Positions 777 through 22,972 of a DNA stretch of 22,972 nucleotides are shown here, piece by piece (position 1 is the first letter of the stretch; every line of letters starts with the position of its first letter). The notes under the pieces are model-generated. The model searched no databases, had not been told where the DNA came from, and worked only from the letters and a program-made list of their open reading frames with translations. The position numbers and the translations under genes were made by a program. The stretch spans positions 1 to 22,972 of the forward strand of contig JBHLRQ010000046.1 of the NCBI GenBank assembly GCA_048882385.1, in the 5' to 3' direction. The DNA is from Candidatus Thorarchaeota archaeon (lineage in GTDB: Archaea; Asgardarchaeota; Thorarchaeia; Thorarchaeales; Thorarchaeaceae).

Positions 777-790
777 ATGCTACACGCGCT

Positions 791-1381
791 CTAGTTAACT
801 ATTCGCTCTGTAACTCCGCTGTCTGTGACACTCATGACACGGATGTCGCCGCCTGATTGAGCATCTCTTGCTATTCCTGCTTTGACAGCGTTGATGGCAA
901 TAACTTCAGCCTCTTTTACTGTCATATCTGGTTTGAATCCTTCTTCAAGGACACCATAGGCAGTTGCTGTTCCAGTACCAGTTGCGGTGAACTCATCTGG
1001 GATAAGAGACCCTCCCATATCAAGTGTGAAGAGTTGTGGCCCATCAGAGTCAATACCAATAACAATAGTCTGTACATACAAAGGTGCCATGCGTCGAGCA
1101 TAGAGTGTATTGGCCAGCATCTTAGAAAGCGCTCTTACAGTAATTTCCTTCTTCTGATTCAGCTCGTAAAGTTTGATTTGAGCTTGAAGTCTATTTACCA
1201 GCATCTGATAGTCTGAGGTCAGACCCGCAGAAGCCAAAACGATTGTATCGGTGAGCTTGAAAGCCTTGATTCCTGTATCACTTAGGACAAATGTACCCCA
1301 CGTGATCAATGAATCAGTAGCTACCACTACGCCATCACTGCATTTTATCCCGACAACAGTTGCACCAGTTGGAAGTGACAT
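791..1381 (-). CDS. psmB: Proteasome beta subunit, probably a non-catalytic paralog
   Basis: PTGATVVGIKCSDGVVVATDS, AGLTSDYQ, DMGGS, ATGTG, RDAQSGG are typical 20S beta-subunit motifs. ATG at 1381 preferred (GGAGG about 10 nt upstream); the ORF track starts at TTG 1387. Confidence 0.93.
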   Translation of the reverse strand: MSLPTGATVVGIKCSDGVVVATDSLITWGTFVLSDTGIKAFKLTDTIVLASAGLTSDYQMLVNRLQAQIKLYELNQKKEITVRALSKMLANTLYARRMAPLYVQTIVIGIDSDGPQLFTLDMGGSLIPDEFTATGTGTATAYGVLEEGFKPDMTVKEAEVIAINAVKAGIARDAQSGGDIRVMSVTDSGVTERIVN

Positions 1382-1475
1382 TATCAATGAGCCTCCGAAT
1401 GGGAGTTAGTCTGTGTTGGTCACGTCCGGTCTTTTTAAAACGTTTGCGAACTGTCCCTTGTCATCCTGAAGGAGC

Positions 1476-3590: not shown

Positions 3591-3706
3591 CAGGGAAACC
3601 AGGTATGAGAATTGTCCACACCGTTATGAACTATCTCCTAAAGGGCATATTTTGACTCAGTCCCAATCCTTATTTGTGCCACAAGTCAAATCAGAATGCG
3701 GTCACG

Positions 3707-4231
3707 ATGAAGTCACTATTCATAGGGCGATTCCAGCCAATTCACAAGGGACACATCCACACAATGAAGCAAATCTTAGCCAAGAACGAAGACATAATCA
3801 TCGTTGTTGGCAGCTCGCAATACTCACATACCCCAGATAATCCATTCACTGGCGGTGAAAGAGTGATGCTCATTAGACGTGCATTGATTGATGAGAAACT
3901 CCCTTTGGATCGTATCACCGTGGTCCCCTTATCAGATATTAACATCCATCCGTTGTGGGTGAGTCATATGCGCTCCTTTGTACCATATTTTGACAAGGCG
4001 TACAGCCATAATCCCCTTGTCAAGAGGCTACTTGAAGAGGGCGGAATCAAGACCGACTCGACTAAGCTTCTGGAGCGTTCTCAATACAGCGCCAGTCATA
4101 TCCGTGACCTAATCAGGTGGGGTAATGAGGAATGGGAAACCCTTGTCCCTGAGGGTGTTGCAGCTCTGATAAAGGAGCATAAATTAGATGACAGAATTCG
4201 TGAAGTTGGCGAAATCCGTACAAAGCGCTGA
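3707..4231 (+). CDS. nadM: Nicotinamide-nucleotide adenylyltransferase (archaeal NMNAT)
   Basis: MKSLFIGRFQPIHKGH (HxGH motif), GSSQYSHTPDNPFTGGER, SASHIR, WETLVP. ATG at 3707 chosen over the upstream TTG at 3674. Confidence 0.93.
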   Translation: MKSLFIGRFQPIHKGHIHTMKQILAKNEDIIIVVGSSQYSHTPDNPFTGGERVMLIRRALIDEKLPLDRITVVPLSDINIHPLWVSHMRSFVPYFDKAYSHNPLVKRLLEEGGIKTDSTKLLERSQYSASHIRDLIRWGNEEWETLVPEGVAALIKEHKLDDRIREVGEIRTKR

Positions 4232-4244
4232 TTTCATGGTATGC

Positions 4245-4252
4245 TTTAAATA
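4245..4252 (+). promoter_or_regulatory. Candidate TATA box upstream of proS
   Basis: TTTAAATA in the nadM-proS spacer. Confidence 0.45.
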
Positions 4253-4378
4253 CAAAACGGGATGACGAAGTGTTGGTGAACGTAAATGCTAGGTGAACAC
4301 GTTCCGAAATATCAATAGAACACTACTTCTCAGTCCTAGTCAATACCATGTATCACAACTTAGACAGAGGATAATATC

Positions 4379-5857
4379 ATGAGCAGTCAACAGAAAGACA
4401 ATAAAATTGCCATATTCGACATAGACAAGGAAACTAACTTTCCTGACTGGTATACTGAAATCGTTCGAGTGGCAGAACTCGCTGATGTCAGATATGGTGT
4501 CAAAGGGTTCACTCCTTTTCCCCCATGGAGCACAATGAGCATGAACCTTATGTTTGACATTCTAGAAGATGCACTTCAACGTAAAGACCACTTGCCCATG
4601 CTATTTCCAACCGTCATTCCGGAAGCAAACCTCAGGAAAGAGGCTGACCATGTTGAAGGCTTCACTCCCCAGGTTTTCTGGATATCAGAGATTGGCGACG
4701 GTGAGAAGCTAGAGGAGCGATTGGCACTCAGACCAACCAGTGAAACTGCGATCTATCCCATGTATTCACTTTGGGTGCGAAGTTGGCGGGACTTGCCTCT
4801 GAAACGGTATCAGCGCGTATCGGTATTCAGATCTGAGATCAAGAGCACACGTCCATTTCTACGAGGAAGAGAATTTCTCTGGATTGAGAGCCACAATGTC
4901 TATTCAACACATGAAGAAGCAAAAGCTCAGGTGCTGGAAGATATCGAAATCTCGAAGGAGGTCTGTACAGACAACTTTGGACTACCAGTGATGGTATTTC
5001 GAAGAACACAATGGGACAAGTTTCCTGGAGGTCTCAACACATATGCGGCAGATACATTGATGCCCGATGGTAAGGTAATACAATTGCCCTCAACCCATGA
5101 TCTCGGCGACAACTTTGCCAAGGCATTTGATATCAAGTTTCTGAATAAAGAAAATGAAACAGTCCATGCTTGGCAAACATGCTATGGTCCTGCAATATCC
5201 AGAATCTATGGTGCGATGATTTCAGTCCATGGTGACAACAAGGGTCTAAGACTGCCTTTCAAGGTAGCTCCCTATCAAGTGGTGATTATACCTATTTTCA
5301 AAGGCAAGAGTGCAGACTCTGTACTCAAATACTGTCAGGACATCAAAAAGAAGCTACAGAATGCTGGTTTCCGTGTCTATCTAGATCAGAGTGAGGAAAC
5401 TCCTGGATGGAAGTACAACTACTGGGAAATGAAAGGAGTACCAATACGTATCGAGGCAGGTCCTCGTGATCTAAAACAGAACAAGGTTGTTGTGTTTCGC
5501 AGAGACACGATGAAGCGAGTAACTATCGATCTTAAGGATTTGAAAAAGAGAGTAACCTCTCTTGGAAAGGAAATCGACGAATATTTGCTCAAAACTGCAG
5601 AATCCAAGTTTGAAGGTCTCATTGTGGATGCTGAGCGATTTGGTGAGATAGATGATGCTCTTGACCATGGAAAGATTGCTCGTGTACCTTTCTGTTCAAT
5701 CGAAATGGATGCATATTCCTGCGCTGAACAAGTCGAGAAGAACACACGTGGTGAGATTCGAGGCACTCGGATGGACATCAACGAAGAACCAGAAGGTCTT
5801 TGTGTTGCATGTGGGAAGGTGGCCAAAGAGGTCGTTTATATAGCAAGATCCTACTAG
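4379..5857 (+). CDS. proS: Proline--tRNA ligase, archaeal/eukaryotic type
   Basis: NFPDWYTE, EADHVEGFTPQVFW, LALRPTSET, PFLRGREFLWIESH, GLRLPFKVAPYQV, PGWKYNYWEMKGVPIRIE, C-terminal CVACG...YIARSY. Confidence 0.97.
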   Translation: MSSQQKDNKIAIFDIDKETNFPDWYTEIVRVAELADVRYGVKGFTPFPPWSTMSMNLMFDILEDALQRKDHLPMLFPTVIPEANLRKEADHVEGFTPQVFWISEIGDGEKLEERLALRPTSETAIYPMYSLWVRSWRDLPLKRYQRVSVFRSEIKSTRPFLRGREFLWIESHNVYSTHEEAKAQVLEDIEISKEVCTDNFGLPVMVFRRTQWDKFPGGLNTYAADTLMPDGKVIQLPSTHDLGDNFAKAFDIKFLNKENETVHAWQTCYGPAISRIYGAMISVHGDNKGLRLPFKVAPYQVVIIPIFKGKSADSVLKYCQDIKKKLQNAGFRVYLDQSEETPGWKYNYWEMKGVPIRIEAGPRDLKQNKVVVFRRDTMKRVTIDLKDLKKRVTSLGKEIDEYLLKTAESKFEGLIVDAERFGEIDDALDHGKIARVPFCSIEMDAYSCAEQVEKNTRGEIRGTRMDINEEPEGLCVACGKVAKEVVYIARSY

Positions 5858-5925
5858 AGTTGGAGTCTGAGATTTTCTGGATTGCTATCTGAGAAATTCA
5901 TTGACACCTCTTTGGAGTTGAGCTG

Positions 5926-6909
5926 ATGAAGGTACTAGTTCCCTATCCTGATGAACTCGTCAAGATTTTCAAAAGCATAATGGGTGATGAAGCTGAAATT
6001 GTTCAATCAGAGCTATCAGCAGAGTCGATGCTTGATCATGGTGGTGATGTGGAAATTGTTGCGTCTGTCAGTGTTCCAGGAGAATTCATTCGGAAAGCAT
6101 CAAACCTCCGAATGATTCAAACATTTGGAGCTGGAATCGATAGGGTCGATATTGATGCTGTGAAAGACCGGGGTGACATTATAGTCTGCAACAATCATGT
6201 CAACTCCGCAGAAGTCGCTGAATTTGCGATAACGCTGCTTTTTGCAGTTGCAAAGAATCTCATTCCAAGTGACCGGGAACTTCGAGCTGGAAATTGGGTC
6301 CATAGATGGGGTGGTCCTGTTCCAAATATCGAAATCCGAGGAAAGAAGGTGCTCATCGTTGGACTGGGTCACATTGGTGCTGATATAGCAAAGAAACTGA
6401 AGTCCTTTGAAGTCACAATCACTGCAGCCACGAGGAGTGGGACATCAAACAATGAACACCTTGTAGACCAACTAGTAAGAATTGAAGAAGTGAAAACACA
6501 TGTCGGTGAATCAGATTTCGTTATCCTCTCCTTACCTTTGACTGATGAATCTACGGGTCTTGTAGATAGAGAATTTCTCTCTTTGATGAAATCCAACTCG
6601 ATTTTGGTGAATATCTCTCGCGGTCAGATAATTGATGAACAGGCACTCTATGAGGCTCTGAAGGATAAACGGATTCATGGTGCAGGAATTGATGTATGGT
6701 GGAGATATCCCTCTAAATGGCGCGGAACAGCAATTCCACCATCAGATGTACCATTCCATGAGCTAGATAATATCGTGGTTTCACCTCACAGGGCTGCTTA
6801 TTCTGAGAACGTTGAGCGTGAGTTGTTCCTGTTTGCAGCAAAAAACATTCTCAGCTTTATTCGTGGCAAAACTCCTCTCAACATAATCGACATCGAACGA
6901 GGCTATTAA
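5926..6909 (+). CDS. D-isomer-specific 2-hydroxyacid dehydrogenase
   Basis: GAGID, VAEFA, Rossmann GLGHIG, LPLT, NISRG, GIDVWW, SPH. Confidence 0.92.
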   Translation: MKVLVPYPDELVKIFKSIMGDEAEIVQSELSAESMLDHGGDVEIVASVSVPGEFIRKASNLRMIQTFGAGIDRVDIDAVKDRGDIIVCNNHVNSAEVAEFAITLLFAVAKNLIPSDRELRAGNWVHRWGGPVPNIEIRGKKVLIVGLGHIGADIAKKLKSFEVTITAATRSGTSNNEHLVDQLVRIEEVKTHVGESDFVILSLPLTDESTGLVDREFLSLMKSNSILVNISRGQIIDEQALYEALKDKRIHGAGIDVWWRYPSKWRGTAIPPSDVPFHELDNIVVSPHRAAYSENVERELFLFAAKNILSFIRGKTPLNIIDIERGY

Positions 6910-7078
6910 CCATTCCACATCAAAAATGTAGGAGAACTTCAATCCTCCTATGGCATCAGATTGTAATAGGGAGTATTGTCTCATGGCGCGTTCAATATAC
7001 CTCAGTGAGTCAGAGAGTCAAGACTTTAAGGACAACATTACTCATCGCAGAAGAAACAACCATTCGGGGGACAACATT

Positions 7079-9268
7079 TTGACCCTAGAGAGTCTGTCTG
7101 ACATTCCCGGTGTAGGTGACAAGGTTAAGCAGTCATTGATTGACCACTTTGGAAGCGAGGCTGTAGCACTCAAAGTGATTCAGGACTCAAGAGTCGACCT
7201 AGTGGCCGCTGTTCCAGGCATTGGATCAAGGCAAGCTGTGAATCTTGTCAAGGGTGCCTTTGAACTGGAATTTGGTGCGACCTCCAACATGTTACTACGG
7301 AGCACGGACATCCGAAAAATCTACGAAGCAAGTCTCGAAATTATCCGCGGATATGCAAACACAACATATGCGAAGGACAAACTATTCCTCTATTTCCCTC
7401 TCCCTCCGGAGAAGACAGATGCCATTCTTGAGAGGCAGAAGTACTTCGCTAATGCTGGAGAGATGGCTGGCGCACTTGCGAAAGAACAGCGTGAAAAACT
7501 GAAAAGTCTGTTAAGCCAAGTCAGAGGACTCTATCGGAGAATAAAACCTCGTAGAATTGAGGGTCGTGTCATAATCACAAATGATGACAAGGTCTTTGAC
7601 ACACTCATAAAGGAGAGCGTTGACAGATGGTGTCCTGTCTATGTTCTTTCTGACGGTGAGAGTGGTGCAGACTATGCCCAGGGATATGACCTGGTCATGT
7701 ACATCTCACCACTGGGTGTTTATGATGATTCGATAGACATGCTGGACAATGTTGAGATTCTAGGAAAGGACTGGTCGATAGAAGATGTCCTTCCAGAAAT
7801 GACAGTCAGTTTTTACTCTCGCAACTATCGTGTCATTGATGCCGCGTGTCAGATTGTGGAAGCGTTCGACAAAATTCCTTCTAATGACTCTGTGTTAACA
7901 TTCTCATCAGCGCTAGACTTTGAGAAACTCACGAAAGTAGGTACGATCCTAAAGAATATTGATGAGAACGGCGATTTGGCTCAAGGTATTGATTCGGAGC
8001 TTGATAGATATCGAACTGCTGTCAAGGTATTTCCAACAGCTGTAGCTGAAACCGAAGCTTGGCTCAATGAGGAAATAACTACACGAATCTCAAAGAGCCA
8101 AGTCACTCTTGGAGGTCAACAAATCATCAGCATACTTCAGTCTGCAGATATGGAAGGTGCAGATGGAAGTGCTCTGAGGAACATGCTACCAGCTGAGATC
8201 GTAGAAACCTTCACAACAACACTTCAAGATGCTGAGGACAGACTAGTGCAGATGCTAGGACTAACAGTTCGTGAAGCTGATTGGGTGACGGGCATCATCA
8301 GTGAGGAGATATCCCTTCCAGTCAAGATGATTACAACTCAGATAAATGACCTTGAAGACCGGTTAAGGAGATTGTTCGCTGAGAAGCAGTTTAAACTCAT
8401 CAAGAAGTTTGCGAATGAACTAGATGAGTTGAAAGACGTTGTTACACAGGCAGTCCAGACACTGCTTGAGTTCGACTTGTTCCTTGCAGTTGGATTATTC
8501 TCAGCAGACTATAAGTTACGGACTCCTAATATCTCTCGAGAGTATAGCGGAGTTGGTGTCAGAGGAGCAACCAATCTGTTCCTTTCTGAGAGCAACATCA
8601 AAGGAAAACATGGTCCTGTACAACCAATTGACTATGCAATTGGAAAGACGCCATTTCAGCCTGAAGGCACTAATGGTGAGAACTGTGCCATACTGTCTGG
8701 AGCTAACAGTGGTGGAAAAACTACAACTATACAGACTCTTGCCCAGATCGTCACACTGGCTCAATCAGGATTCCCAGTTCCTGCAGAAGAAGCCTATCTA
8801 CCGGTCTTTGAGGAGTTGTATTTCTTCTATAAGAGTCGAGGAATGGTGAGTGCTGGTGCATTTGAAACGACCCTTAAGCAATTTGCAGAAATTGTTGTAT
8901 CAGACAAATCGAAATTGGCACTTTTTGATGAGGTTGAAGCAATAACGGAACCGGGTAGTGCTGCAAATGTGATTGCAGGACTCATCGAAATCCTGCAGAG
9001 CGATCCCAATACTTCTACGGTCATATGCAGTCATCTTGCTAGAGAGATTGAAGAGGTCACAGATGTACCGATAAGAATCGATGGTATAGAAGCAAGAGGT
9101 CTGGATGAGGAGCTAAATCTTGTCGTGGACAGAACGCCTAGGTTTGGAGTTCTAGCAAGAAGCACTCCTGAGCTCATAGTTGAACGCCTCTCGAAGCTTG
9201 CCAAAAGTCCCAAGAAGGAAGTATACACAAAAATTCTAGAGAACCTCACAAGGGAACGAACCAAATGA
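7079..9268 (+). CDS. Archaeal MutS-like ATPase with N-terminal helix-hairpin-helix (MutS2/MutS5-type, no mismatch-binding domain)
   Basis: HhH motifs LSDIPGVGDK and AVPGIGSR; MutS domain V Walker A SGANSGGKTT, LAQSGFPVPA, SAGAFE, Walker B LALFDEVEA, and CSH. Likely start TTG 7079 after GGGGGA; the ORF track extends to 6950. Confidence 0.85.
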   Translation: MTLESLSDIPGVGDKVKQSLIDHFGSEAVALKVIQDSRVDLVAAVPGIGSRQAVNLVKGAFELEFGATSNMLLRSTDIRKIYEASLEIIRGYANTTYAKDKLFLYFPLPPEKTDAILERQKYFANAGEMAGALAKEQREKLKSLLSQVRGLYRRIKPRRIEGRVIITNDDKVFDTLIKESVDRWCPVYVLSDGESGADYAQGYDLVMYISPLGVYDDSIDMLDNVEILGKDWSIEDVLPEMTVSFYSRNYRVIDAACQIVEAFDKIPSNDSVLTFSSALDFEKLTKVGTILKNIDENGDLAQGIDSELDRYRTAVKVFPTAVAETEAWLNEEITTRISKSQVTLGGQQIISILQSADMEGADGSALRNMLPAEIVETFTTTLQDAEDRLVQMLGLTVREADWVTGIISEEISLPVKMITTQINDLEDRLRRLFAEKQFKLIKKFANELDELKDVVTQAVQTLLEFDLFLAVGLFSADYKLRTPNISREYSGVGVRGATNLFLSESNIKGKHGPVQPIDYAIGKTPFQPEGTNGENCAILSGANSGGKTTTIQTLAQIVTLAQSGFPVPAEEAYLPVFEELYFFYKSRGMVSAGAFETTLKQFAEIVVSDKSKLALFDEVEAITEPGSAANVIAGLIEILQSDPNTSTVICSHLAREIEEVTDVPIRIDGIEARGLDEELNLVVDRTPRFGVLARSTPELIVERLSKLAKSPKKEVYTKILENLTRERTK

Positions 9269-13503: not shown

Positions 13504-14994
13504 TTAGGTGACAATCACATCTGGAAATTTCGCTATCATGATATCTTTGAGATACCTCATACTAGGAGTCTTTGCAGTTTTTTGAACTTCTTTCAGTATC
13601 TTCTTAGCATCGTCGTATTTTCCTTGTCTGTATCGAAGCTTGGCTTTGAGAATCATTGATTGGGCTGCAATACCAGGAAAGTCATTATCTTGCACATACT
13701 TCTCAAGTTTTTCCATCCAGTTTCCAGACAGGTCTTGCTTTTCGTGTAGTGTTGTATCCTCGAGCATGTCAATTTCCATCTCTGTAAGATTCAGAAGGCA
13801 TATGTTTTGAAACAATGGAGTCGGACTGTTCTCCATAAAATCAAGTACTCTTTGGAAATTCATTTGAGCGTTTTCAAATCGGTTCTCTGCCTTATCGAGT
13901 AATCCTTCAACCATGTAGTACCAGTTCACATGATTCACATCCCCAGACTTCAATGCATGCGTATGACAGATATCTATCACTTCCTTTGCTTCATCATACC
14001 TTTCAAGATTGATCAGAGCCCAAGCTTGTTGTGCTCGAGTATATGCAAGTTGACGATGTGGTGCATTTTCTGGAGAGATTGCCCTCTTTACTCTGTCCAG
14101 CGCTCTATTTCCATCTCCACTCATGTTATAGTAGAATGCAATAAGGGAGTCTATGCCCTTTGTTGGATGGCCAAGTGAAACTTGATATTTCCTGAATTCG
14201 CAGTGATAATCGATTGCGGCATCAAACTCCCCCCTCATTCCCATGATTTGTCCCATACTCTGCTGAATATACCCAATCTGGACGAAATACCCAATTTCTT
14301 CGCTTAGTTCTCTTGTGGTCAATAACATATCTATGGCTTGTTTAACATCACTCTGTCTAATCAAATTGGCTAGAAAACCAAGAGTACAGGCGGCAAAAAC
14401 CCTATCATCGAATTTTCTTGCTATTGCCAGTACCCGTCTGAAATTAGCTATTGCTGCTTTTCTGTCATTCTCTCTCAGTAGAGCCATAGCTTCGATCCAG
14501 AGAAGATATGATTCAAAAAAGTGCAACTCGCTGTTGTCTTTTACAGCAGCTGCGATTGTATCAAGTGGCCAAATCTCAACATCGGCCTCAGAAAAGAAAT
14601 ACTGAGTAGACATTCTCCATGTAAGGTATAGATGACTTGATATCCAGTTATTGGGTGACATATCAAGGGCGGTCTTAAGAGAGGCTCTCACCTCATCCCA
14701 ACTGATGTTTGTGCCTCTATTCACTTTGACATGCAGAAGAAGAGGTTTGGCCAGGTCAGACACCTTCCCTGCTGCTTCAAGTCTATCAATCAGATTGAAA
14801 TTCTCTACCCAGTATGCGAATGAGATTGCCAAATACTCCAGTAATGGAGATGATTGTTCAGCGATTATCTTATCACAGAGTTTCTCTGTGAAGTCGCCAT
14901 AATTCTCTGCCTCCTTCATCACCAATTCAAGCGTATTCCTTGACTTCTCATCCACATAAGGAAAACACATAGTTATTGTGCCTAGTGGCTCCAT
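13504..14994 (-). CDS. Tetratricopeptide-repeat (TPR-like) protein
   Basis: All-helical with TPR-like patterns (MGQIMGMRGEFDAAIDYH, AWALINLERYDEAKEVI, AKLRYRQGKYDDAKKIL). Start ATG 14994 or GTG 15003. Confidence 0.82.
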   Translation of the reverse strand: MEPLGTITMCFPYVDEKSRNTLELVMKEAENYGDFTEKLCDKIIAEQSSPLLEYLAISFAYWVENFNLIDRLEAAGKVSDLAKPLLLHVKVNRGTNISWDEVRASLKTALDMSPNNWISSHLYLTWRMSTQYFFSEADVEIWPLDTIAAAVKDNSELHFFESYLLWIEAMALLRENDRKAAIANFRRVLAIARKFDDRVFAACTLGFLANLIRQSDVKQAIDMLLTTRELSEEIGYFVQIGYIQQSMGQIMGMRGEFDAAIDYHCEFRKYQVSLGHPTKGIDSLIAFYYNMSGDGNRALDRVKRAISPENAPHRQLAYTRAQQAWALINLERYDEAKEVIDICHTHALKSGDVNHVNWYYMVEGLLDKAENRFENAQMNFQRVLDFMENSPTPLFQNICLLNLTEMEIDMLEDTTLHEKQDLSGNWMEKLEKYVQDNDFPGIAAQSMILKAKLRYRQGKYDDAKKILKEVQKTAKTPSMRYLKDIMIAKFPDVIVT

Positions 14995-15203
14995 ATCTAT
15001 CACATCTTTTGTAAGAGTCTGAATTCACATACGTTAACTCTTTCATCATTAAGAAATTATTAGTTCCATTATTATAAAATTATTAGTTTATTAGTTCATT
15101 GTTTTGGCTTGCTCTTCAATCATGAAACTTGGTGATACTCTGGAATAGCTCAATACTTCTGAGAGTCTATTTCATATCTGAGAAAGTTCATATAACTACT
15201 GCA

Positions 15204-16070
15204 ATGTACGAGATTAGATCACTACGTCTGTCTGACAGAGAGGATATTCTGGAGATAGCACGACACATCTGGGAAGGACATGACTATATTCCGTACCTCT
15301 TTGATACCTGGCTAAATGATAGACACTCATACACCGCAGCAATTGAACAAGATAGTCATGTGGTTGCGCTCGCAAATCTTAGAGTGATAGAGAATGGAAA
15401 GACAGGCTGGATGGAGGGCCTTCGAGTTCATCCAGACTATCGCGGCAGAGGTTTTGCAAAACTTCTAACACAGCATGTTGTTCAGATGGCAAAAGAAATT
15501 CCGGTTGAAAGGATCCGTTATACAACAGCGGCTGACAATGAATCATCTCTCCATCTAGGAGAATCAGTAGGGATGAGAAGGAAGTTCGATCTTGCTGTTC
15601 ACTGGCAAGATATTGATAATGAAATTTCTTGGTCTGTATCACAGAATCCTGTTAGAGAGGTGTCTGTGGCGGAACTGTATCCACGTGTTCTCAATACTGA
15701 ACTATTTCCACACAACATAATAATCTACGACTGGAAAGCTCTGGATGTCACTCGTGAGAGTCTTGAAAAAATCGGAAAGGATTCGAGATTTTGGATGCAA
15801 ATCATGGGAGACGAGATTGTGTCAATCTCTCTTGGACTCACTCGTGAGGACCAATCGGGCTCTCATTGGAGTTTCTCAATCTATGCAAAAGATGGCTCAA
15901 CATTTCTCGACCAATTGGCACACCAGGTGAAGATGACATTCGACACTGGATGCAAGAGCTTCTTCGTGACATATCAGACAGATTTTGTTGAATCTCTCTA
16001 CTCTCTGGATTGGGTAAAACGATATGATGATGACTCCATGACTCTGACCCTATTAGAGCGTACTTTCTAA
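15204..16070 (+). CDS. GNAT-family N-acetyltransferase
   Basis: IWEGHDY, GWMEGLRVHPDYRGRGFA (acetyl-CoA-binding motif A), NESSLHL. ATG 15204 preferred. Confidence 0.9.
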   Translation: MYEIRSLRLSDREDILEIARHIWEGHDYIPYLFDTWLNDRHSYTAAIEQDSHVVALANLRVIENGKTGWMEGLRVHPDYRGRGFAKLLTQHVVQMAKEIPVERIRYTTAADNESSLHLGESVGMRRKFDLAVHWQDIDNEISWSVSQNPVREVSVAELYPRVLNTELFPHNIIIYDWKALDVTRESLEKIGKDSRFWMQIMGDEIVSISLGLTREDQSGSHWSFSIYAKDGSTFLDQLAHQVKMTFDTGCKSFFVTYQTDFVESLYSLDWVKRYDDDSMTLTLLERTF

Positions 16071-16229
16071 TAAGAATCCCAATTCTTGGAATCTGAGAAC
16101 TCGAGCAGCAATATAGCCATCTCCTGAATAAGTAACTCTTTGCGTTACAGAATAGTACAAGTCTTGAATGCTCTGCCAATTTTTATAGATAGTAGGTCAT
16201 TTGTGCTAATATGGAGGGTATAACCATCA

Positions 16230-17144
16230 ATGAAAGCTATCCATAATCGATTGGTATACTCTCTCGTCTTAGTCATCGCAATTGCACTATATGCGGTTGT
16301 CATTTTATCGCTGGATTATACCTTCATTGGAAATGGATTTAGTCCATTCAAAACATGGAGTCCAATTCAGACAACTTACTTTGCTATTGCTGGATTCGTT
16401 TCTCTGTCAATATTGATTCTCAATGATCTCCGAACTAGGAATGCAAATCTCCAAGGATTGGTTCATGTTCCTCCAATCATCGTGCTGTCTTTTCTCATTC
16501 TTTTCTCGATGGATTCTCGTCAAGTACTGCAGTATTTACCCTACCTCCAAGTCTTCCTATTCAATGACTTCGGCAGCCTGTTTCTTTTCGGAGGTCTTCT
16601 TGCTGTATATCTCACATACCTGATATCAGATAACTCATACAGGACTATAAGCAATCAGAATGGCTATCTCGAATTTTTGCTGCACTCGATTCTAGTTGTA
16701 TTCATTGGTCCGCTTCTATTGGGCACAGCATTCTTCTTTGGTATATCCATCTGTCTGAGTCTTGGTCTGGAAATATTCCCATTCTATGGCGAAGGGATAA
16801 TCGGTTCTGTTCTGGTTGTTTCTGTTCTGCTAGCTATGTATGCGACAGCTAGGATTCTCAGTTACCTAGAGCATAATGAATTACCAAATTTGGATTCAAT
16901 CACACTTGGTCAGGTTCTCAGAGTCATTTTCGAGATCATTGTTGTCTACGTCTGCACTGTGGCAGGATTCTCAATTGTTGGAGGACTAGTCACTGACAGT
17001 ATTCCAATGACAGAGATAGTTCCCTTCAGTCTAATTTCATTAGGACTCTATTCGGTCATACCATTCAGTATTCTGCTCACACGTTTCAGAATCTTTCCAA
17101 TTCTATCTTCTAACAGTCCAAGAAAAACAGTTAGCAAATGTTGA
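16230..17144 (+). CDS. Multi-pass membrane protein (about 8 hydrophobic segments)
   Basis: Long hydrophobic stretches; GGAGGG RBS and TTTTATA upstream. Confidence 0.75.
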   Translation: MKAIHNRLVYSLVLVIAIALYAVVILSLDYTFIGNGFSPFKTWSPIQTTYFAIAGFVSLSILILNDLRTRNANLQGLVHVPPIIVLSFLILFSMDSRQVLQYLPYLQVFLFNDFGSLFLFGGLLAVYLTYLISDNSYRTISNQNGYLEFLLHSILVVFIGPLLLGTAFFFGISICLSLGLEIFPFYGEGIIGSVLVVSVLLAMYATARILSYLEHNELPNLDSITLGQVLRVIFEIIVVYVCTVAGFSIVGGLVTDSIPMTEIVPFSLISLGLYSVIPFSILLTRFRIFPILSSNSPRKTVSKC

Positions 17145-17186
17145 TGTGTCTTCAAAGTCAAGTCACACATGAAGTGAGTTTTTGAT

Positions 17187-17390
17187 ATGACTATTGAGAA
17201 ATGTCCGTCCTGTGGAAAAGCTATGGAACCTGGTTATCTTATTGCTGGCCGCGCAATTTTCTGGTGTGACCATTTACCCAATTTAATTTGTAGATGTGGA
17301 GCAGCGTTATCAAAGAGAATGATAACATGTTCTGGTATCGCATGTTATAGATGTAAGAGTTGTCGGATTATTCGTTATTTGATAGACTAG
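17187..17390 (+). CDS. Small Zn-ribbon protein (PF20097/DUF6487-like), copy A
   Basis: KCPSCGKAMEPGY...W...YRCKSCRII pattern; paralog at 18196-18411. Confidence 0.82.
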   Translation: MTIEKCPSCGKAMEPGYLIAGRAIFWCDHLPNLICRCGAALSKRMITCSGIACYRCKSCRIIRYLID

Positions 17391-17392
17391 AT

Positions 17393-17418
17393 AAAAAGTA
17401 GCGCTGCCGATATTATGA
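17393..17418. repeat. tRNA-3'-end-like direct repeat, copy 1 (degenerate)
   Basis: AAAAAGTAGCGCTGCCGATATTATGA aligns without gaps to the other copies; begins 3 nt after the Zn-ribbon A stop. Confidence 0.7.
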
Positions 17419-18057
17419 ACTAACTTCCTCGAATGAATCTTCAATGTATTGCAGTCTTTTCATATATTCTTCTCTTTTCCAATCATCGATATTAGTTAGG
17501 GAAGCAAGTCTTCTTAGAGCATCAAGAAATGTCGAATCTTCTCTAGCGGCTACCAAATCTATTACACGCTTTTTGGATGTTGCATCATTTCGGCTCTTAT
17601 AGAACCTTATACCCAAAAGGAGAATGACAAGAAAGGATGCGAGTGCTGCGATCGATGTGAACGATACCACTGAGCCTGAAGGAGAAATCAAATCCGAAAT
17701 TGGGAGAAAAATCGCGATGGGAAGGAGAACCAAAACTGCCACAGAGAAAGAAACTGCACCTTTTGATCGAATACGTTCTTTGTTCATCTGGACCTCTGAA
17801 TAGGCAAAGAGTTCGAACTCATTCAGAGCATCTATTTCCCAAACATCAAGATAGACCAAGTCCTCTCCTCCTGGATCTTGAATTACATATGGATCGAGTT
17901 GCCAATCTTCTCCAAAGTGTTGACGTTTGACTGCATACTCAGCATATTTTGAATCCCTCCTCAGTATTTTTTCGATCTCTTCACATTTCTTATCTATGAA
18001 GTAAGTAAGCTCGGTCAGATCAGAAACATCAACTTCAACTCTCAATCTTTTCCACAC
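17413..18057 (-). CDS. Hypothetical membrane protein (2 TM helices)
   Basis: 214-aa ORF with GTG start and two central hydrophobic segments. Its TAA stop lies inside repeat copy 1. Confidence 0.72.
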   Translation of the reverse strand: MWKRLRVEVDVSDLTELTYFIDKKCEEIEKILRRDSKYAEYAVKRQHFGEDWQLDPYVIQDPGGEDLVYLDVWEIDALNEFELFAYSEVQMNKERIRSKGAVSFSVAVLVLLPIAIFLPISDLISPSGSVVSFTSIAALASFLVILLLGIRFYKSRNDATSKKRVIDLVAAREDSTFLDALRRLASLTNIDDWKREEYMKRLQYIEDSFEEVSS

Positions 18058-18195
18058 CTACACTACGTCTAGAAGGTAGACTTGAAGCAAAATGAGGATT
18101 TCTGGCAGATTGTTATCATAAGGAGAAGTGGCACCATTGGTAGCAAATATTGATGTGGCTTCAAAGAAATACACATCAAATGAGGAGACCCAGAT

Positions 18196-18411
18196 ACGGA
18201 AGAAGTTGAGAAATGTCCATCTTGTGGAAAAGATATGGAAAAAGGATGGTTGGCAGCAGGTGATAACATACATTGGTGCAATGAAACTAACCCCCCAGGC
18301 GCATGGATCAGACGTGGTGATAAATTAACCAAGGGCTGGGTCAATCCATTCACGATTTCAGGATATAGATGTAAGAACTGTCAGATTATTCGATATCAGA
18401 AAATTGATTGA
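18196..18411 (+). CDS. Small Zn-ribbon protein (PF20097/DUF6487-like), copy B, with ACG at the expected start position
   Basis: Manual translation, absent from the ORF track: (ACG)EEVEKCPSCGKDMEKGWLAAGDNIHWCNETNPPGAWIRRGDKLTKGWVNPFTISGYRCKNCQIIRYQKID*. GAGGAG at 18182-18187; in-frame TGA at 18181. Confidence 0.78.
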   Translation, partial: TEEVEKCPSCGKDMEKGWLAAGDNIHWCNETNPPGAWIRRGDKLTKGWVNPFTISGYRCKNCQIIRYQKID

Positions 18412-18414
18412 TAG

Positions 18415-18437
18415 AAGAAATGGCGCTGCTGGTATCA
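18415..18437. repeat. tRNA-3'-end-like direct repeat, copy 2
   Basis: AAGAAATGGCGCTGCTGGTATCA, identical over 23 nt to 18743-18765. Confidence 0.9.
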
Positions 18438-18462
18438 CAAGTCCAATTCTGAAAGCTTTCGC

Positions 18463-18472
18463 AATATATTAA
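18463..18472 (+). promoter_or_regulatory. Candidate TATA box for the 65-aa gene
   Basis: AATATATTAA; the same 10-mer occurs at 18841 upstream of the PRC-barrel gene. Confidence 0.5.
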
Positions 18473-18520
18473 TGACAACAAAAGGTTGGAAACCGAAACA
18501 CACAGTCGGATGGGTACACG

Positions 18521-18718
18521 ATGATAAAAGAATCGAAAAAACTGATCATCGAAACTCTCCTGACTTCAATAATGTGGATTTTCACGCTCACACCTATCAT
18601 TTTGTTTGGCTATTCATTCTCAGCTGAGTATATGATTATCTTCGCTGGGCTCTCCCTTTCTCTGATCGGTGACATTTCACTAGAACTCTACAAGCGAAGG
18701 AAAAAGTCTACTACTTAG
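18521..18718 (+). CDS. Small 2-TM membrane protein (65 aa)
   Basis: Two hydrophobic helices with basic termini (KKL..., KRRKK); upstream TATA-like box. Confidence 0.65.
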   Translation: MIKESKKLIIETLLTSIMWIFTLTPIILFGYSFSAEYMIIFAGLSLSLIGDISLELYKRRKKSTT

Positions 18719-18742
18719 TTCCTGAGGATGAGAGAACTGAGA

Positions 18743-18765
18743 AAGAAATGGCGCTGCTGGTATCA
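18743..18765. repeat. tRNA-3'-end-like direct repeat, copy 3
   Basis: AAGAAATGGCGCTGCTGGTATCA, identical to copy 2. Confidence 0.9.
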
Positions 18766-18840
18766 AGTTTGATGCTGTAGTCAAGAAACCAAGAGAAGTA
18801 AGTTCTTCCATGTTTACAGCCTGTGAGAGTGTAACCCCAA

Positions 18841-18850
18841 AATATATTAA
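18841..18850 (+). promoter_or_regulatory. Candidate TATA box for the PRC-barrel gene
   Basis: AATATATTAA about 46 nt before the ATG; GGTGA RBS-like sequence just upstream of 18897. Confidence 0.5.
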
Positions 18851-18896
18851 CAATTGTTAAAACATCATCAAGAAGAAATCCTTTCGTGGTGAAACA

Positions 18897-19565
18897 ATGA
18901 AGTTATCCAAACCAGTATGCTGTCAAGAAATCAAAAACATGGACGTCGTGGATGCATCAGGTAAAACGATTGGAAAGATCTCGAATCTGACATTTACATT
19001 CGAAGGCTCACTGAAGCTCAAACATTTCATTCTTGGTGGATCAAGAGTGGAGGAGTTTCTTGAAGCCATCAATCTAAAACCAGATGAAGACCCTGTGTTT
19101 GAATCTACTGTAATCAAGAAAATAGATACCCACATTCATCTTGATACTTCTGTGAACGGTCTAAAGGATTTCCAGGATACAATCTCCGATGATGAGATAA
19201 AGTTCTCAGACCTTCAGAAACTGGAGATTGTTGATAAAAACGGCTCCAAAGTGGGACGTGCAATCAATGTGGATTTTGATTTAGACGGTCGTACAGCCTT
19301 GATAGCTGGTGGGGGTCTAATAGAAGAGAAGCTTGAAGCTTTTGGTCTGAAGGAAGACGTGGATATTATAGTACCTTTCAAGGTCATCGTTTCGATAGAT
19401 GAATCAATAAGACTCTCAGTTTCAAAAGATGAATTAGATACAAGTCTAGATGGGATACTAAGAGAACGAGTAAATGAAATCAGGTACCAAAGAGAGGCTG
19501 CTGCAGCCCAAAGCCATGGCAAAAAGGTACGAGTGCCTATCCACTGGCGCTATGGACGTGCATAA
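18897..19565 (+). CDS. Tandem PRC-barrel domain protein
   Basis: Two homologous halves: MDVVDASGKTIGKISNLTF...GGSRVEEFLEAINLKPDED and LEIVDKNGSKVGRAINVDF...GGGLIEEKLEAFGLKEDVD. Confidence 0.85.
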   Translation: MKLSKPVCCQEIKNMDVVDASGKTIGKISNLTFTFEGSLKLKHFILGGSRVEEFLEAINLKPDEDPVFESTVIKKIDTHIHLDTSVNGLKDFQDTISDDEIKFSDLQKLEIVDKNGSKVGRAINVDFDLDGRTALIAGGGLIEEKLEAFGLKEDVDIIVPFKVIVSIDESIRLSVSKDELDTSLDGILRERVNEIRYQREAAAAQSHGKKVRVPIHWRYGRA

Positions 19566-19655
19566 GAGCCTAGCACTTTCTGATTTCCGGATGCAAGACA
19601 ATGATGCCCCAGAAAGAAACCAATATGACGATATCTACGCGCATCTAAGAATAGG

Positions 19656-19685
19656 AAAGAAGGAATGGCGCCGCCGGGATTATGA
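19656..19685 (-). repeat. tRNA-3'-end-like direct repeat, copy 4 (most tRNA-like; att-like fragment)
   Basis: 19666-19681 reverse-complements to AATCCCGGCGGCGCCA, which parses as T-loop end (AAT) + 5-nt T-stem + 7-nt acceptor strand + discriminator A. It is followed on the minus strand by TTCCTTCTTTC. Confidence 0.8.
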
Positions 19686-19801
19686 TTTTGTTAATTCTGG
19701 TTTTATTCCATCCATGCAGATTTCAAAATCTTTTGAATTTCCTCAAGACTTTCCAGATATAATCTTCTACATTTACAACCTTAGGTGAATGACATAACAC
19801 C

Positions 19802-19820
19802 AAAAAAAGAAAGAAAGAGA
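19802..19820 (-). terminator. Oligo-T archaeal terminator after the surface protein gene
   Basis: Minus strand reads TCTCTTTCTTTCTTTTTTT, starting about 12 nt past the stop codon. Confidence 0.6.
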
Positions 19821-19831
19821 TTGTGTTAACT

Positions 19832-22651
19832 TCACACTTGAAAGTGTGCTTCAACAACAATCCCTTTGATTGCTTCAACTATACTGCTAAACGCAATACC
19901 TTCCACTATGACCTCAACTTGATAAATTCCTGCCTCGATGTTAATGAAGTAGTAGAAACCTTGTTCGTCTGTTGTTGTTTCCAAGAGAACTTGGCCTAGT
20001 TCATCCAGCAATTTCACCGTCACACCAGGAACGGGAAGCCCGTTTGCATCTCTGACATAGCCTGCAATTGCAGTGGTCTTCTTTAGGTTTCCAACTAAGC
20101 CAATCGAAGTATAATATGATCCGGCAAGCGAACTCCCAGGCACTGATAACGACCCACTCAATCCGGAAATCTCCGAAGTGAACGTGTAGCTCTTTATGAT
20201 GAAATCCGAGAGGGTTTCATAGAGATTACCTCTTAGGGCATATGTCAAATGAGCAATTATGTGCAATCTACTTCCCGAATCAAAATTCTCTACATATACA
20301 TTATTGTCAGTAATTATGCAATGTTCTGTTATCTCTATATCGTCAAGAAAAACGTGTATTGGATTAGTGCCCTGGAAAGCAAAGTCTGATGGTATGTCTA
20401 GAAGAACATTAAGGGCATCAACAGCTAGAGGCCAAGCGTTTTCAAGCTCTACATGATAGAAGAATTGACCAGGATTAGTGGCTACGAGCCTATATTCTCC
20501 TGATTTAGTCTTTGACATCACAATTCGAAAACTACTGAGCTCGTTTCCATCACCATCCGTGACATACGATTCAGACTTCAGACTTACTAATTGAACCGTG
20601 GTTGTATGAGTATCTTCAGTATTACCGACGTTGTCGGTACTGAAATATGAGATTGAGTAAGTTCCATCAGGACCATCTATTTTGAATCCATCAGTATAAA
20701 CGATCCATTCACCTTCGTCGATTCTGTAGTATGTTGCAGCAATACCTGAAACGTCATCTGACCGGTCTAGCGTAAACAGTGTCCCTGATGTGACATAGTA
20801 AAGAAATCCATCGGTATAATAAGGCTCCATTAACAACCCAGTTTCTGGGGCCTGTAAATCTAAGATGATCTGAACATCGAGCAACACTGACTCACGATCT
20901 TCAGGTCGATCATTGTCGTTGTCTTCAACATATACTGTTGCAGTGTATATCCCCGGATACAAAACTGCGATGTGCGGATTAAGGTCCGTGAATGTGTATC
21001 CATCAATCTGGACTAGGACTGTGCCAATGCCACTGGAGTCAGTTGCATCTATATCAATTGTGAACTGTATCTGATCTCCAGACATCTGAAGGTTCCCTAC
21101 CCAAAGTATTACAACAGGGGGATCAGAATCATCGTCGATTATTTCGAAGTAGAATGATTGAGTCGTTGAAAGCTGATCTCCGCCCCTATCATTGTCATTG
21201 TCCCAGATCTCAATCTCAGCACAATTGAGTCCCGGCGTTTTAGGACTTGGCACCTCTATCCAATAGTATCCATTAATGTAGTCCGCGTAGTATTTTATCC
21301 CATTGAATGCAATCCACCGATCAATGCCAGAGGAGTCAGCTGCCTGAATCCGAATCTGAAGGTAATCCTCGCTGTCATATATTGGTTCTGAAAAAATCTC
21401 TTGAATAACTGGTGGTGATGTGTCATCATCATATATGAAGAAGTTACACATATAGGATGTCGAAAGCTGGTCTCCTGGTCGGTCTTTGTCTGCGTCCCAC
21501 ACCTTTACCTCCACGGTGTGATCACCTGGCGTTCTTGGACTGTTTACACTAGCGCTGTACCAGTATGAGTAAATGTCCTCCAGAGTATATGGATCCCACC
21601 CAATGAGCTCACTATGGTCGTATTCGCTCTCATAGTTAACGCCGTTGAACGTTATCATATTATCAATGCCACTATCATCATCATAAGCGCAGACTTCTAT
21701 TGGGATTTGATCCATACTGTCTATGATTAGACTCGGACATTTGAATGGTTCAAACCATGGATTAACCATACTTGACTCAGGAATTACTGGTGGAGTAGAG
21801 TCATCATCTGTTGTGGATATGCTAAAGAACACTGTCGTGTAACGGTATCTTGCATTGTATGTGAATGGGGGCCATAGCAAAAGTTCATCATATCTCCATA
21901 AGACCTGAACAGCTAGATAATGCTCTCCTGGAGGCACACCTGTGCAGCTAGCGTGATAGACAACGAGCGGTAATGGCTGCTGTCCCCACACCCCTACTCC
22001 AAGGTCCCAATCAGACCCCAGAAAATTCCAATCTTGATCGAGTTCGGGAATATAGGGTAAGGTTTCATAGGGATATGGATCAAGGTAGCCATAGGGTCCG
22101 TAAGGACCTTTCATATCACTACCATCTATGAAGGTGTCTCCGCCCTCGGTATTTGTATCAGACTTGTCGTAGTCCACATACGCGTATACTCTGAATATGT
22201 GTTCTCCAAAGACCAAATTCTCAATAGAGAAGTCACAGGAGAAGGAAACGTCGGTCGTTGACCAAGTTAAAACTGGCCCTATAATAGGAGTCATATGTAT
22301 CTCCGAGAGAAGCTGGCTCTTCTCTTCGTCTGTATATGTCCCATTTGCCCATCCTTGGTACACTGATGCCTGTTTGTCTAATGTTTCAATCGTTATAGGA
22401 TCTGCCTGCTGGATGTCTGTATATGTCATATTTTTCCATTCTAAGAGAAAGCTCCTCCATTCCTCAAATGTCTGAGGTAGCCATGTGCTGTCCTCCGAAA
22501 TAGCTGAAGCACTCTGCGTTTCGAAACCAGTTTTGGTTTCTTGGTGTACTATAGACGAAAATGAGTTCTGCGAAAAAGCATGGCCTGCATAGACCAAGCC
22601 GGATGCAAGTAGCAAAAACCCAATTACCACTATAGTTCTCCTTCTTATCAT
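19832..22651 (-). CDS. Large secreted acidic protein with repeated Ig-like domains and a C-terminal carboxypeptidase-regulatory/CnaB-like domain
   Basis: Signal peptide MIRRRTIVVIGFLLLASGLVYAGHA; three DDD..PP...D.SGI...D.D.DR..D repeats; SDDVSGIAATYYRIDEGEW...YFSTDNVGN module; terminal IAGYVRDANGLPVPGVTVKL...TTTDEQGFYYF. Confidence 0.85.
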   Translation of the reverse strand: MIRRRTIVVIGFLLLASGLVYAGHAFSQNSFSSIVHQETKTGFETQSASAISEDSTWLPQTFEEWRSFLLEWKNMTYTDIQQADPITIETLDKQASVYQGWANGTYTDEEKSQLLSEIHMTPIIGPVLTWSTTDVSFSCDFSIENLVFGEHIFRVYAYVDYDKSDTNTEGGDTFIDGSDMKGPYGPYGYLDPYPYETLPYIPELDQDWNFLGSDWDLGVGVWGQQPLPLVVYHASCTGVPPGEHYLAVQVLWRYDELLLWPPFTYNARYRYTTVFFSISTTDDDSTPPVIPESSMVNPWFEPFKCPSLIIDSMDQIPIEVCAYDDDSGIDNMITFNGVNYESEYDHSELIGWDPYTLEDIYSYWYSASVNSPRTPGDHTVEVKVWDADKDRPGDQLSTSYMCNFFIYDDDTSPPVIQEIFSEPIYDSEDYLQIRIQAADSSGIDRWIAFNGIKYYADYINGYYWIEVPSPKTPGLNCAEIEIWDNDNDRGGDQLSTTQSFYFEIIDDDSDPPVVILWVGNLQMSGDQIQFTIDIDATDSSGIGTVLVQIDGYTFTDLNPHIAVLYPGIYTATVYVEDNDNDRPEDRESVLLDVQIILDLQAPETGLLMEPYYTDGFLYYVTSGTLFTLDRSDDVSGIAATYYRIDEGEWIVYTDGFKIDGPDGTYSISYFSTDNVGNTEDTHTTTVQLVSLKSESYVTDGDGNELSSFRIVMSKTKSGEYRLVATNPGQFFYHVELENAWPLAVDALNVLLDIPSDFAFQGTNPIHVFLDDIEITEHCIITDNNVYVENFDSGSRLHIIAHLTYALRGNLYETLSDFIIKSYTFTSEISGLSGSLSVPGSSLAGSYYTSIGLVGNLKKTTAIAGYVRDANGLPVPGVTVKLLDELGQVLLETTTDEQGFYYFINIEAGIYQVEVIVEGIAFSSIVEAIKGIVVEAHFQV

Positions 22652-22972
22652 TTCCGAATCCTCTCCCTTCTAACCCCTATCTCTAAGGGCCGTCTATACT
22701 ATAAACTAACTAGTTTAAAAATATAATCTCGAATGTTTCAAACATCAGTTTAATTAATGCAGAAGAATGTTATTGCCGAAATAATGCATCTGCTACAACC
22801 TCTGGATTTGTGAGATCGATACCAGTTTCTCGTTTGATTCATTCAGCGAGACTATTGTTTAGTTCCTCTTGGTCCTCACTCATATCTACCACAGTCCCTA
22901 CTACTTTTCAGTTCTAATACTCCGATATAAGCACGGTGCTACTCTTCGGTACGAACAGCAATGTTAATATTG

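Follow-up and report, generated by a model that had tools for sequence, protein, structure and literature searches.

An array of one-gene cassettes separated by tRNA-Asn tails in a Thorarchaeota genome

The array in the window and its tRNA-Asn repeat

The window examined here, 22,972 nucleotides from a Candidatus Thorarchaeota archaeon, is the entire contig C46 of the source metagenome-assembled genome (MAG) G000, which comprises 3,698,314 bases in 256 contigs, has 43% G+C and is 95% complete. Between 16.1 and 19.7 kb it carries an array of six one-gene cassettes, with a direct repeat of ∼23 nt at each junction. From left to right, a GNAT gene is followed by a repeat relic, the gene for M304, a second relic, Zn1, repeat m1, T214 (minus strand), m5, Zn2, m2, S65, m3, a PRC-barrel gene, m4 and a minus-strand gene for a 939-aa protein. 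In what follows, G numbers denote genomes, L numbers loci of relatives, C numbers contigs of G000, f and g numbers a family and genera (f1, g1, g25), and m1 to m5 the repeat copies of the window.

An earlier note on this DNA had placed four plus-strand copies of a motif at 17399, 18421, 18749 and 19666, each with an A/G-rich tract ahead of it and spaced by 1022, 328 and 917 nt. A pattern search confirmed these coordinates, and the tracts and spacings were also correct. When TRGCGCYGCYGRKAT was searched with up to one mismatch, four matches were found in the window, compared with a mean of 0.02 in 100 shuffles, none of which reached 4. Across the whole 3,698,314-base assembly the sole matches were the same four sites, so the motif is not scattered genome-wide as a generic signal. 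A fifth, decayed copy (TGGCACCATTGGTAGCA), four transitions away from the family consensus, was detected at 18129 by a repeat search and by a position weight matrix (PWM) built from 28 repeat copies; at a score cut-off of at least 6, the matrix returned exactly these five sites in the window, and 0–2 in 20 shuffles. The copy at 18129 cuts the 1022-nt interval into 730 and 292 nt, so that each interval corresponds to one gene. The gene content given in the earlier note was correct, and its count of one or two genes per interval changes to one gene for each. Two heavily decayed relics, near 16093 and near 17125, bound the unit of the 304-aa protein. All checked deviations of the window copies from the family consensus TGGCGCCGCCGGTA are C-to-T or G-to-A transitions.

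The left relic (16093..16108, plus strand) was recognized by column-wise alignment with good copies situated ahead of the orthologous gene in both G022 and G004, and keeps about 8 of 16 core positions. The cargo of unit 1, M304, is a multi-pass membrane protein of 304 aa without a Pfam family (open reading frame (ORF) at 16230..17144, plus strand), whose orthologues are bounded by repeats in G004 (L019 5475..6515) and G022. At the boundary between M304 and Zn1 (17119..17135, plus strand), the relic as read from the sequence keeps the right-hand part GTTAGCAAAT of a Zn-cassette left end and has lost the G+C-rich core; the left ends with which it was compared (...GGTAGCAAATATTGATGTG) are those at 18129 in the window, L026 5696 and L031 762. 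Unit 2 carries Zn1, a DUF6487 zinc-ribbon protein of 67 aa (17187..17390, plus strand; PF20097, E 2.2e-08), and is followed by m1 (17391..17413, plus strand; A/G tract and TAGCGCTGCCGATAT), which has a PWM score of 25 and three transitions from the consensus, and is orthologous to the copy at L021 10948, both having a TAG variant. The cargo of unit 3, T214 (17413..18057, minus strand), is an ORF of 214 aa with two predicted membrane helices and no Pfam family. It represents the commonest cassette family of these arrays, with relatives in L020, L021, L022 and L026 that always have the same polarity; an Atlas search with T214 returned solely uncharacterised archaeal clusters, all below 0.9.

Repeat m5 (18121..18145, plus strand; PWM score 28), orthologous to the Zn-cassette left ends at L021 11684 and L026 5696, precedes unit 4, which holds a second DUF6487 zinc-ribbon, Zn2 (18184..18411, plus strand; PF20097, E 8e-12). 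The frame of Zn2 has a stop at 18181 and its first in-frame ATG, GTG or TTG at 18235, so the first CxxC lies upstream of any usual start and Zn2 is probably a decaying copy; the equivalent frame in G013 is open from a GTG within the repeat. A conserved block, TAGCAAATRTTGATGTG..CTTCAAAG, lies ahead of each zinc-ribbon gene (17132–17170 and 18141–18176) and is kept in the Zn cassettes of relatives. It contains an inverted repeat, which reads TTGATGTG ... CACATCAA in the Zn2 copy, and may be an operator or a leader hairpin. Unit 5, with the 65-aa membrane protein S65 (ORF at 18521..18718, plus strand), lies between m2 (18413..18437, plus strand; AAGAAATGGCGCTGCTGGTATCA) and m3 (18741..18765, plus strand), which are identical over 23 nt and both score 34; homologues of S65 in G013 and G018 stop at decayed repeats. 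Unit 6 encodes a PRC-barrel protein of 222 aa (18897..19565, plus strand; PF05239, E 2e-11) and ends at m4 (19658..19680, plus strand; TGGCGCCGCCGGGAT), the best preserved copy, with a score of 37. The S65 and PRC genes have a TATA-like AATATATTAA ∼50 nt on their 5' side, from which at least some units seem to have their own promoter.

Judged by sequence comparison, the repeat is the reverse complement of the last 12–15 nt of tRNA-Asn(GTT) (...CTACCGGCGGCGCCA) together with ∼8 nt of a pyrimidine-rich trailer, and its core corresponds to the acceptor-stem 3' strand, the discriminator and the encoded CCA (tRNA positions 62–76). The proposal that the motif is a tRNA 3' end is thus borne out, the tRNA having been identified in relatives. 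ARAGORN detected a tRNA-Asn(GTT) in G018 at L022 5106–5181, whose 3' end CCGGCGGCGCCA is one motif copy, and in G005, G023, G041 and G009 the motif is continuous with that same T-arm, one or two introns lying deeper in the gene. The tail predicted earlier, AATCCCGGCGGCGCCA, is tRNA sequence over CCGGCGGCGCCA and not in its remainder. In genus relatives the motif recurs in clusters with AAGAAG-like tracts ahead of it, and since genuine G000 tRNA genes have similar pyrimidine-rich trailers, the A/G tract represents the complement of the tRNA trailer. The gene itself varies in structure within the genus, being intron-free in G018 and carrying one or two introns at varied places elsewhere (L020 3643–3830, L034 70–190, L035 1261–1380, L046 104–260).

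ARAGORN found no tRNA within the window; of the 30 tRNAs that Rfam matches in G000, none ends in this tail, and those that match it best in part are unrelated; and tRNA-Asn was not found in the G000 assembly by BLAST and pattern searches. In the loci of relatives, a promoter 18-mer always lies ∼28 nt 5' of the tRNA-Asn 5' end, and this promoter flank, unique in G000, is found at the window's end (22954..22971; AATATTAACATTGCTGTT on the minus strand), an end to which the G021 flank (L041) is orthologous. Accordingly, tRNA-Asn is placed ∼28 nt past the contig end, on the plus strand and inverted relative to the array, rather than on the minus strand to the right of the window as the earlier note had expected. 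Between the array and this promoter lies the gene for the 939-aa protein, which is secreted or at the surface (ORF at 19832..22651, minus strand). The gene is accessory, with matches in 2 of 28 genus genomes, G000 included, and G006 matches query residues 642–930 alone.

The anchoring of such arrays at a tRNA, also proposed earlier, is seen directly in relatives. An intact tRNA-Asn caps the array in G005, G018, G013, G378 and G379, with the array directly 3' of the tRNA, and the array is inverted relative to tRNA-Asn, as in G000, in G014, G042, G371, G375 and G396. G014 and G005 have both outer flanks in common (GNAT on one side, a 157-aa gene and a ZIP transporter on the other) and differ by a flip of the tRNA-plus-promoter segment between them, so inversion at the site appears to occur.

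A motif that is always intergenic, that is followed in the tRNA sense by a pyrimidine-rich tract like that of genuine G000 tRNA genes, and at which tRNA-sense genes such as T214 stop 1–2 nt away could also be a terminator, an operator or an RNA element resembling a tRNA end, kept for expression while gene order varies independently. We consider this very unlikely, since the motif is found at a single G000 locus, decays freely there, and in relatives has the same sequence as the 3' end of the tRNA-Asn next to it. Moreover, cargo ORFs lie in both orientations relative to the repeat across the arrays (42 opposite, 33 the same), and an Rfam search over 16000–20500 gave no credible family, with a best E-value of 2.7.

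Two further readings of the motif were tried and rejected. As the start of a small ORF (ATGGCGCTG...) it fails because m1 has no start codon and the frames differ among copies, and as a split-tRNA half or T-arm because no complementary T-stem or 5' half lies nearby.

Arrays among relatives and at other tRNA genes

The 12-mer TGGCGCCGCCGG from the tRNA-Asn tail, of which m4 is the sole exact copy in the G000 assembly, was found in 20 of 28 genomes of the genus, g1, and the reversed control had no matches; 11 of the 28 have at least two copies on one contig, and several copies lie at contig ends. In a 400-genome sample of the phylum, 67 genomes had a 12-mer match, and family f1 alone, in its genera g1 and g25, had contigs with at least three copies. 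The numerous matches in G315 are spread over separate contigs, and the control pattern matches there too. Arrays from g25, g22 and g29 have an identical build.

To describe the units, each was taken as the stretch between consecutive same-strand repeats, and ORFs were counted at 60 aa or more. The 63 inter-repeat units from 20 genomes had a median length of 909 nt (range 79–4661 nt), and 50 of them contained a single ORF, which was intact and covered 58–94% of the unit; two ORFs were found in 8 units, three in 3 and none in 2. Repeats flank the units on both sides, and all copies inside one array are in direct orientation. The cargo includes enzymes (M1 peptidase, SAM methyltransferase, APH-type phosphotransferase, flavin reductase, PLD-like nuclease, UbiD, beta-lactamase-family hydrolase, nitroreductase, PhzF, LD-carboxypeptidase and D-aminopeptidase), transport, surface and structural proteins (cation-efflux, beta-propeller and beta-helix surface, tail-sheath-like, TPR, PRC-barrel and DUF6487 proteins), and several families without a known domain. 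Paralogues of cargo genes are also located elsewhere in G000, on C18, C17 and C10. The tail sheath-like protein (PF04984/PF17482) stands alone in its unit (L060, on G359:C104, 75–1253), and no other tail genes were found in the stretch examined.

A TPR protein is also encoded in the window, at 13504–15003. In G013 (L021, on G013:C22, 5045–9822), three tandem TPR paralogues of 499–505 aa lie beside the array, and G018 has one, as a single unit between two repeats, suggesting that the left flank, which looks fixed, may belong to an older section of the array.

When relatives were compared, a check that the earlier note had proposed, units were indeed found to be gained, lost and reordered, with the breakpoints falling at the repeats. 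In blastn searches the PRC cassette matched from repeat to repeat, over window positions 18743–19677 in G022 and 18739–19688 in G005; the match of the T214 unit began at 17393 in G013, and matches of the S65 unit ended at 18743 and 18752. When arrays of different genomes were compared in all pairs, 168 of 453 ends of high-scoring segment pairs inside arrays lay within 20 nt of a repeat, compared with 4.3% of random positions, a count that is descriptive because the genomes are related. The PRC unit occurs in 8 arrays with three kinds of left-hand neighbour and 6 kinds on the right, namely the 939-aa gene (window), flavin reductase (G004), T214 (G005, G042), methyltransferase (G010), M304 (G022, L306) and a beta-propeller gene (L302). 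The order is PRC-Y600-M304 in G004 and Y600-PRC-M304 in G022, and in the window M304 lies upstream of PRC; these orders are not obtainable by deletions from one ancestral order. More distant PRC homologues (up to 57% identity) are found in ordinary contexts without repeats.

The repeats themselves are chimeric. To the right of approximately position 10 their sequence follows the right-hand unit, and the trailer follows the unit on the left. For example, GGTAGCAAAT accompanies Zn and ATTATGA accompanies T214, and AATATCAA is found with PRC in both G004 and G022 although the left neighbours differ. This pattern is as would be expected of an att core.

These rearrangements bear on the idea that the units are scars of larger elements (viruses, plasmids or islands of several kb) which integrated at tRNA-Asn and lost their backbones by deletion, with the order changed by homologous recombination between the 23-nt repeats. 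tRNA-Asn does host larger elements, as an insert of ∼8.2 kb adjoins the tRNA 3' end in G014, and its junction, ctatggttaa followed by TGGCG, is also present in G008 and G375. In addition, no recombinase is present now and the repeats decay in G000, and decay of bacterial integrated elements into integrase-less att-flanked units is described in excerpts of PMC5704250, as are partial tRNAs scattered in Prochlorococcus islands in excerpts of a preprint (bioRxiv 10.1101/2020.12.28.424599). However, random deletion would leave fragments and pseudogenes, and 50 of the 63 units have exactly one intact ORF; the same one-gene units, with changing neighbours, keep both of their boundaries in several species; and the exchange of Y600 and PRC between G004 and G022 needs the excision and re-insertion of a single unit. 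We therefore regard an origin as scars as unlikely.

The G014 insert (L293, which is G014:C10 26000–45999; insert at 57–8355) encodes a 910-aa HerA-like (DUF87) ATPase, an MFS transporter and two proteins, of 683 and 197 aa, that belong to no family, and its far end carries a 22-nt 5' fragment of tRNA-Asn with promoter, in opposite orientation. As a candidate integrative element, it has no recognisable integrase.

A search with the last 15 nt of other G000 tRNAs showed that 3'-end fragments of tRNA-Ala, -Leu, -Tyr and -Phe and of a tRNA on C94 are also repeated nearby. Tails of tRNA-Ala are present in five copies on C110 (2139–7757) and three on C98 (810–3801), and also on C20 (37344–39413), and those of tRNA-Leu are found on C187 (559–2054), C66 and C134. 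Three 31-nt copies on C94 (906–3889) lie upstream of the tRNA and inverted relative to it, and there are two extra tail copies each for tRNA-Tyr on C1 (125524–130596) and tRNA-Phe on C125 (104–1073). In these arrays (L295–L301) the fragments are from 15 to more than 40 nt long and spaced by ∼0.4–3 kb, mostly with one or two genes between them in the intervals inspected, and some arrays lie upstream of their tRNA in inverted orientation, like that of the window. With tRNA-Asn included, G000 has at least 25 tRNA fragments spaced by 0.3–3 kb.

Proposed growth of the array and the search for a recombinase

If units are added at the tRNA, the repeats farthest from it should be the oldest. From left to right, and after the two relics, the PWM scores of the window copies are 25, 28, 34, 34 and 37, and the score climbs toward the tRNA side in 8 of 9 arrays with a known tRNA end. 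When adjacent repeats were compared in all arrays, the tRNA-proximal copy was better in 35 pairs and worse in 19. The gradient, a modest signal, agrees with units being inserted at the tRNA end and displacing older ones outwards.

We favour, as the reading that is probable on present evidence, serial site-specific accretion and shuffling of integrase-less mini-cassettes at tRNA-Asn, and infer its enzyme, circular intermediates and direction of growth from these patterns. A site-specific recombinase, provided in trans, would have inserted small circles without an integrase, each with one copy of the site, one by one at the tRNA-Asn 3' end, and every insertion would move the older units farther from the tRNA. 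The same reaction between repeats of the array would later have excised, re-inserted and at times inverted units, and could in this way have shuffled their order between species and flipped the tRNA-plus-promoter segment in the G000 lineage.

Growth at the tRNA-proximal end would equally follow if a transposase- or casposase-like enzyme inserted linear DNA at the tRNA-Asn 3' end by a long staggered cut, each time duplicating ∼23 bp of target. The duplication would resemble that of CRISPR repeats or casposon target sites, and no att site would be required on the incoming DNA. The two copies that flank the S65 unit, identical over 23 nt, both have two derived C-to-T changes that are absent from the tRNA, as expected if a site that had already mutated was freshly duplicated. 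Integration of casposons at tRNA 3' ends produces duplications of 14–15 bp. However, Cas1 (PF01867) and a Y1 transposase were not found in G000, and no terminal inverted repeats were seen at cassette ends when the junctions were read by eye. The right edge of the repeat also varies with the right-hand cassette, which fits crossover within an att core better than a fixed duplication, and target-site duplication thus appears quite improbable.

The recombinase required by accretion in trans was sought in G000 and its relatives. Consistent with the view that the units encode no integrase, none of 48 proteins in and around the arrays has a recombinase or transposase domain in Pfam. A tyrosine recombinase had been anticipated near the array; there is none nearby, and none was detected in G000 (PF00589). 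Among the 28 genus genomes, 19, some of them 93–97% complete, have no match to the tyrosine recombinase family, which suggests that these Thorarchaeota do not have a XerA-type recombinase. When viral contigs were searched with two patterns, the only matches were to G+C-rich phage or to a conserved enterobacterial prophage coding sequence, never with two or more copies at one locus. The order of the window is reproduced in Logan contigs of X2, X6, X7 and X12, with X6 uncovered over 16330–17127 and X12 covering part of the PRC gene.

Several observations weigh against serial accretion. G000 has no match to PF00589, PF16795, PF00239, PF01867, PF01797 or PF00078, so that a tyrosine or serine recombinase, Cas1, a Y1 transposase and a reverse transcriptase are all among the classes not found there; as positive controls, the six families were detected in 14, 3, 12, 7, 6 and 3 of 14 reference genomes, respectively. 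PF00589 is present in 9 of the 28 genus genomes (8 above the cut-off), none of which is the array-bearing G013, G014, G005 or G042, and the 2.4–3.5 kb around each of six integrase loci of relatives contain no copy of the site. In Logan contigs from three studies, in which rare variants are dropped, no circular junction, deletion variant or joint at a repeat was found. For double-strand site-specific recombination, circles of ∼300 bp are small substrates. DNA identity between the PRC cassettes of different species is ∼82–86% and thus gives no sign of recent exchange. The age gradient over all arrays is weak (Spearman 0.23, p about 0.05, with arrays that are not independent), and the inverted layout of array and tRNA in G000 requires an extra inversion step.

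The recombinase may come from transient elements, may be of an unrecognised family, or may be gone from the lineage. The G000 array looks old and probably inactive, since its repeats are the more decayed the farther they lie from the tRNA side, a start codon has been lost from one cargo gene and no recombinase could be detected. A bolder version, which we put forward only tentatively, is that Thorarchaeota have a dedicated, integron-like means of gene capture in which the tails of several tRNAs serve as sites and the recombinase or mechanism is outside known families. Because none is detectable in a 95%-complete genome with at least 25 sites, such a recombinase would have to lie outside the tyrosine, serine, Cas1, HUH and reverse-transcriptase families.

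No closer relatives of eukaryotes are known than Asgard archaea, and the way in which they gain and shuffle accessory genes is poorly understood. The locus points to a family-wide, tRNA-anchored hot spot at which one-gene modules are rearranged module by module, and its repeats provide a simple signature for mapping the flexible genome of Thorarchaeota and account for some assembly breaks in these MAGs. It also poses a concrete search problem, that of finding the enzyme for these sites in the absence of any known recombinase. A dedicated enzyme, should there be one, would in function be the archaeal counterpart of the integron integrase, acting on a simple double-stranded site of ∼23 bp, and the gene-capture system would represent a new class of cassette platform by which Asgard accessory genomes are shaped.

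Comparison with known systems

The earlier note had compared the array to an integron, and the likeness extends to the single-gene units (50 of 63) and is functional only. Mostly single-gene cassettes, diverse accessory cargo, one site per cassette and reordering are common to the arrays and to integrons, which are reported in Archaea too (bioRxiv 10.1101/2022.02.06.479319). In contrast, no intI tyrosine recombinase accompanies the arrays, PF00589 giving no match in G000, G013, G014 and G042; in place of attC hairpins the site is a tRNA tail, and the repeat search lists no inverted-repeat pair at the junctions. The cassettes of an integron are promoterless and in one orientation, whereas gene orientation is mixed here and at least some units seem to have TATA-like promoters. 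Finally, the integron platform is attI with Pc, and here it is a tRNA gene.

Cis-mobilizable elements (CIMEs) are generally kilobases or tens of kilobases long. Tandem accretion of such elements also resembles the arrays. The repeats correspond to a tRNA 3' end, an intact tRNA stands at the array end in relatives, and the units are integrase-less with sites on both sides; direct repeats of a tRNA 3' end, the absence of own integration genes, retained att sites, tandem stacking and possible mobilisation in trans are likewise described in excerpts of PMC5704250. In the published cases considered, CIMEs and tandem islands are multi-gene, derive from recognisable integrative and conjugative or integrative and mobilizable elements, and usually have an integrase in the tandem, whereas the units here have a median of 0.9 kb and one gene.

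In Prochlorococcus, Tycheposons form an island beside a full-length tRNA, with partial tRNA copies, older elements pushed inward and adaptive accessory cargo, according to excerpts of bioRxiv 10.1101/2020.12.28.424599. As described there, they differ in carrying tyrosine or serine recombinases and replication modules, in having partial tRNAs that mark remnants rather than separate nearly every gene, and in their bacterial host. The ssrA islands of Dehalococcoides are also tandem, with 20-bp direct repeats of the 3' end, and some have no module and are proposed to be cis-mobilizable; they target tmRNA, reach up to 100 kb downstream of ssrA, and sixteen have a six-gene integration module that includes the serine recombinase DsiB (excerpts of PMC3146451).

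Among archaea, 3' fragments of tRNAs that form direct repeats through integration, and tandem integration at one locus, are described in excerpts of PMC9897764 and PMC8371274. In the excerpts of PMC9897764, 20 Thermococcaceae genomes have roughly seven partial tRNAs, derived from single elements of ∼9–23 kb, compared with the at least 25 fragments in the single genome G000. Insertion of the casposon or CRISPR kind would involve Cas1, for which (as PF01867) G000 gives no match. A tRNA-primed retroelement, with a primer-binding site beside a polypurine tract, would involve a reverse transcriptase (PF00078), likewise without a match, and the A/G tract is accounted for as the complement of the trailer.

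Full-text literature searches, with excerpts on Asgard mobile elements from PMC8813620 and PMC11529989 among the texts covered, returned no description of such arrays in Asgard archaea. In kind, the array is a tRNA-anchored accretion island, and it differs from the known examples in its one-gene units, its density, the absence of a known recombinase, the use of several tRNAs and its host lineage.

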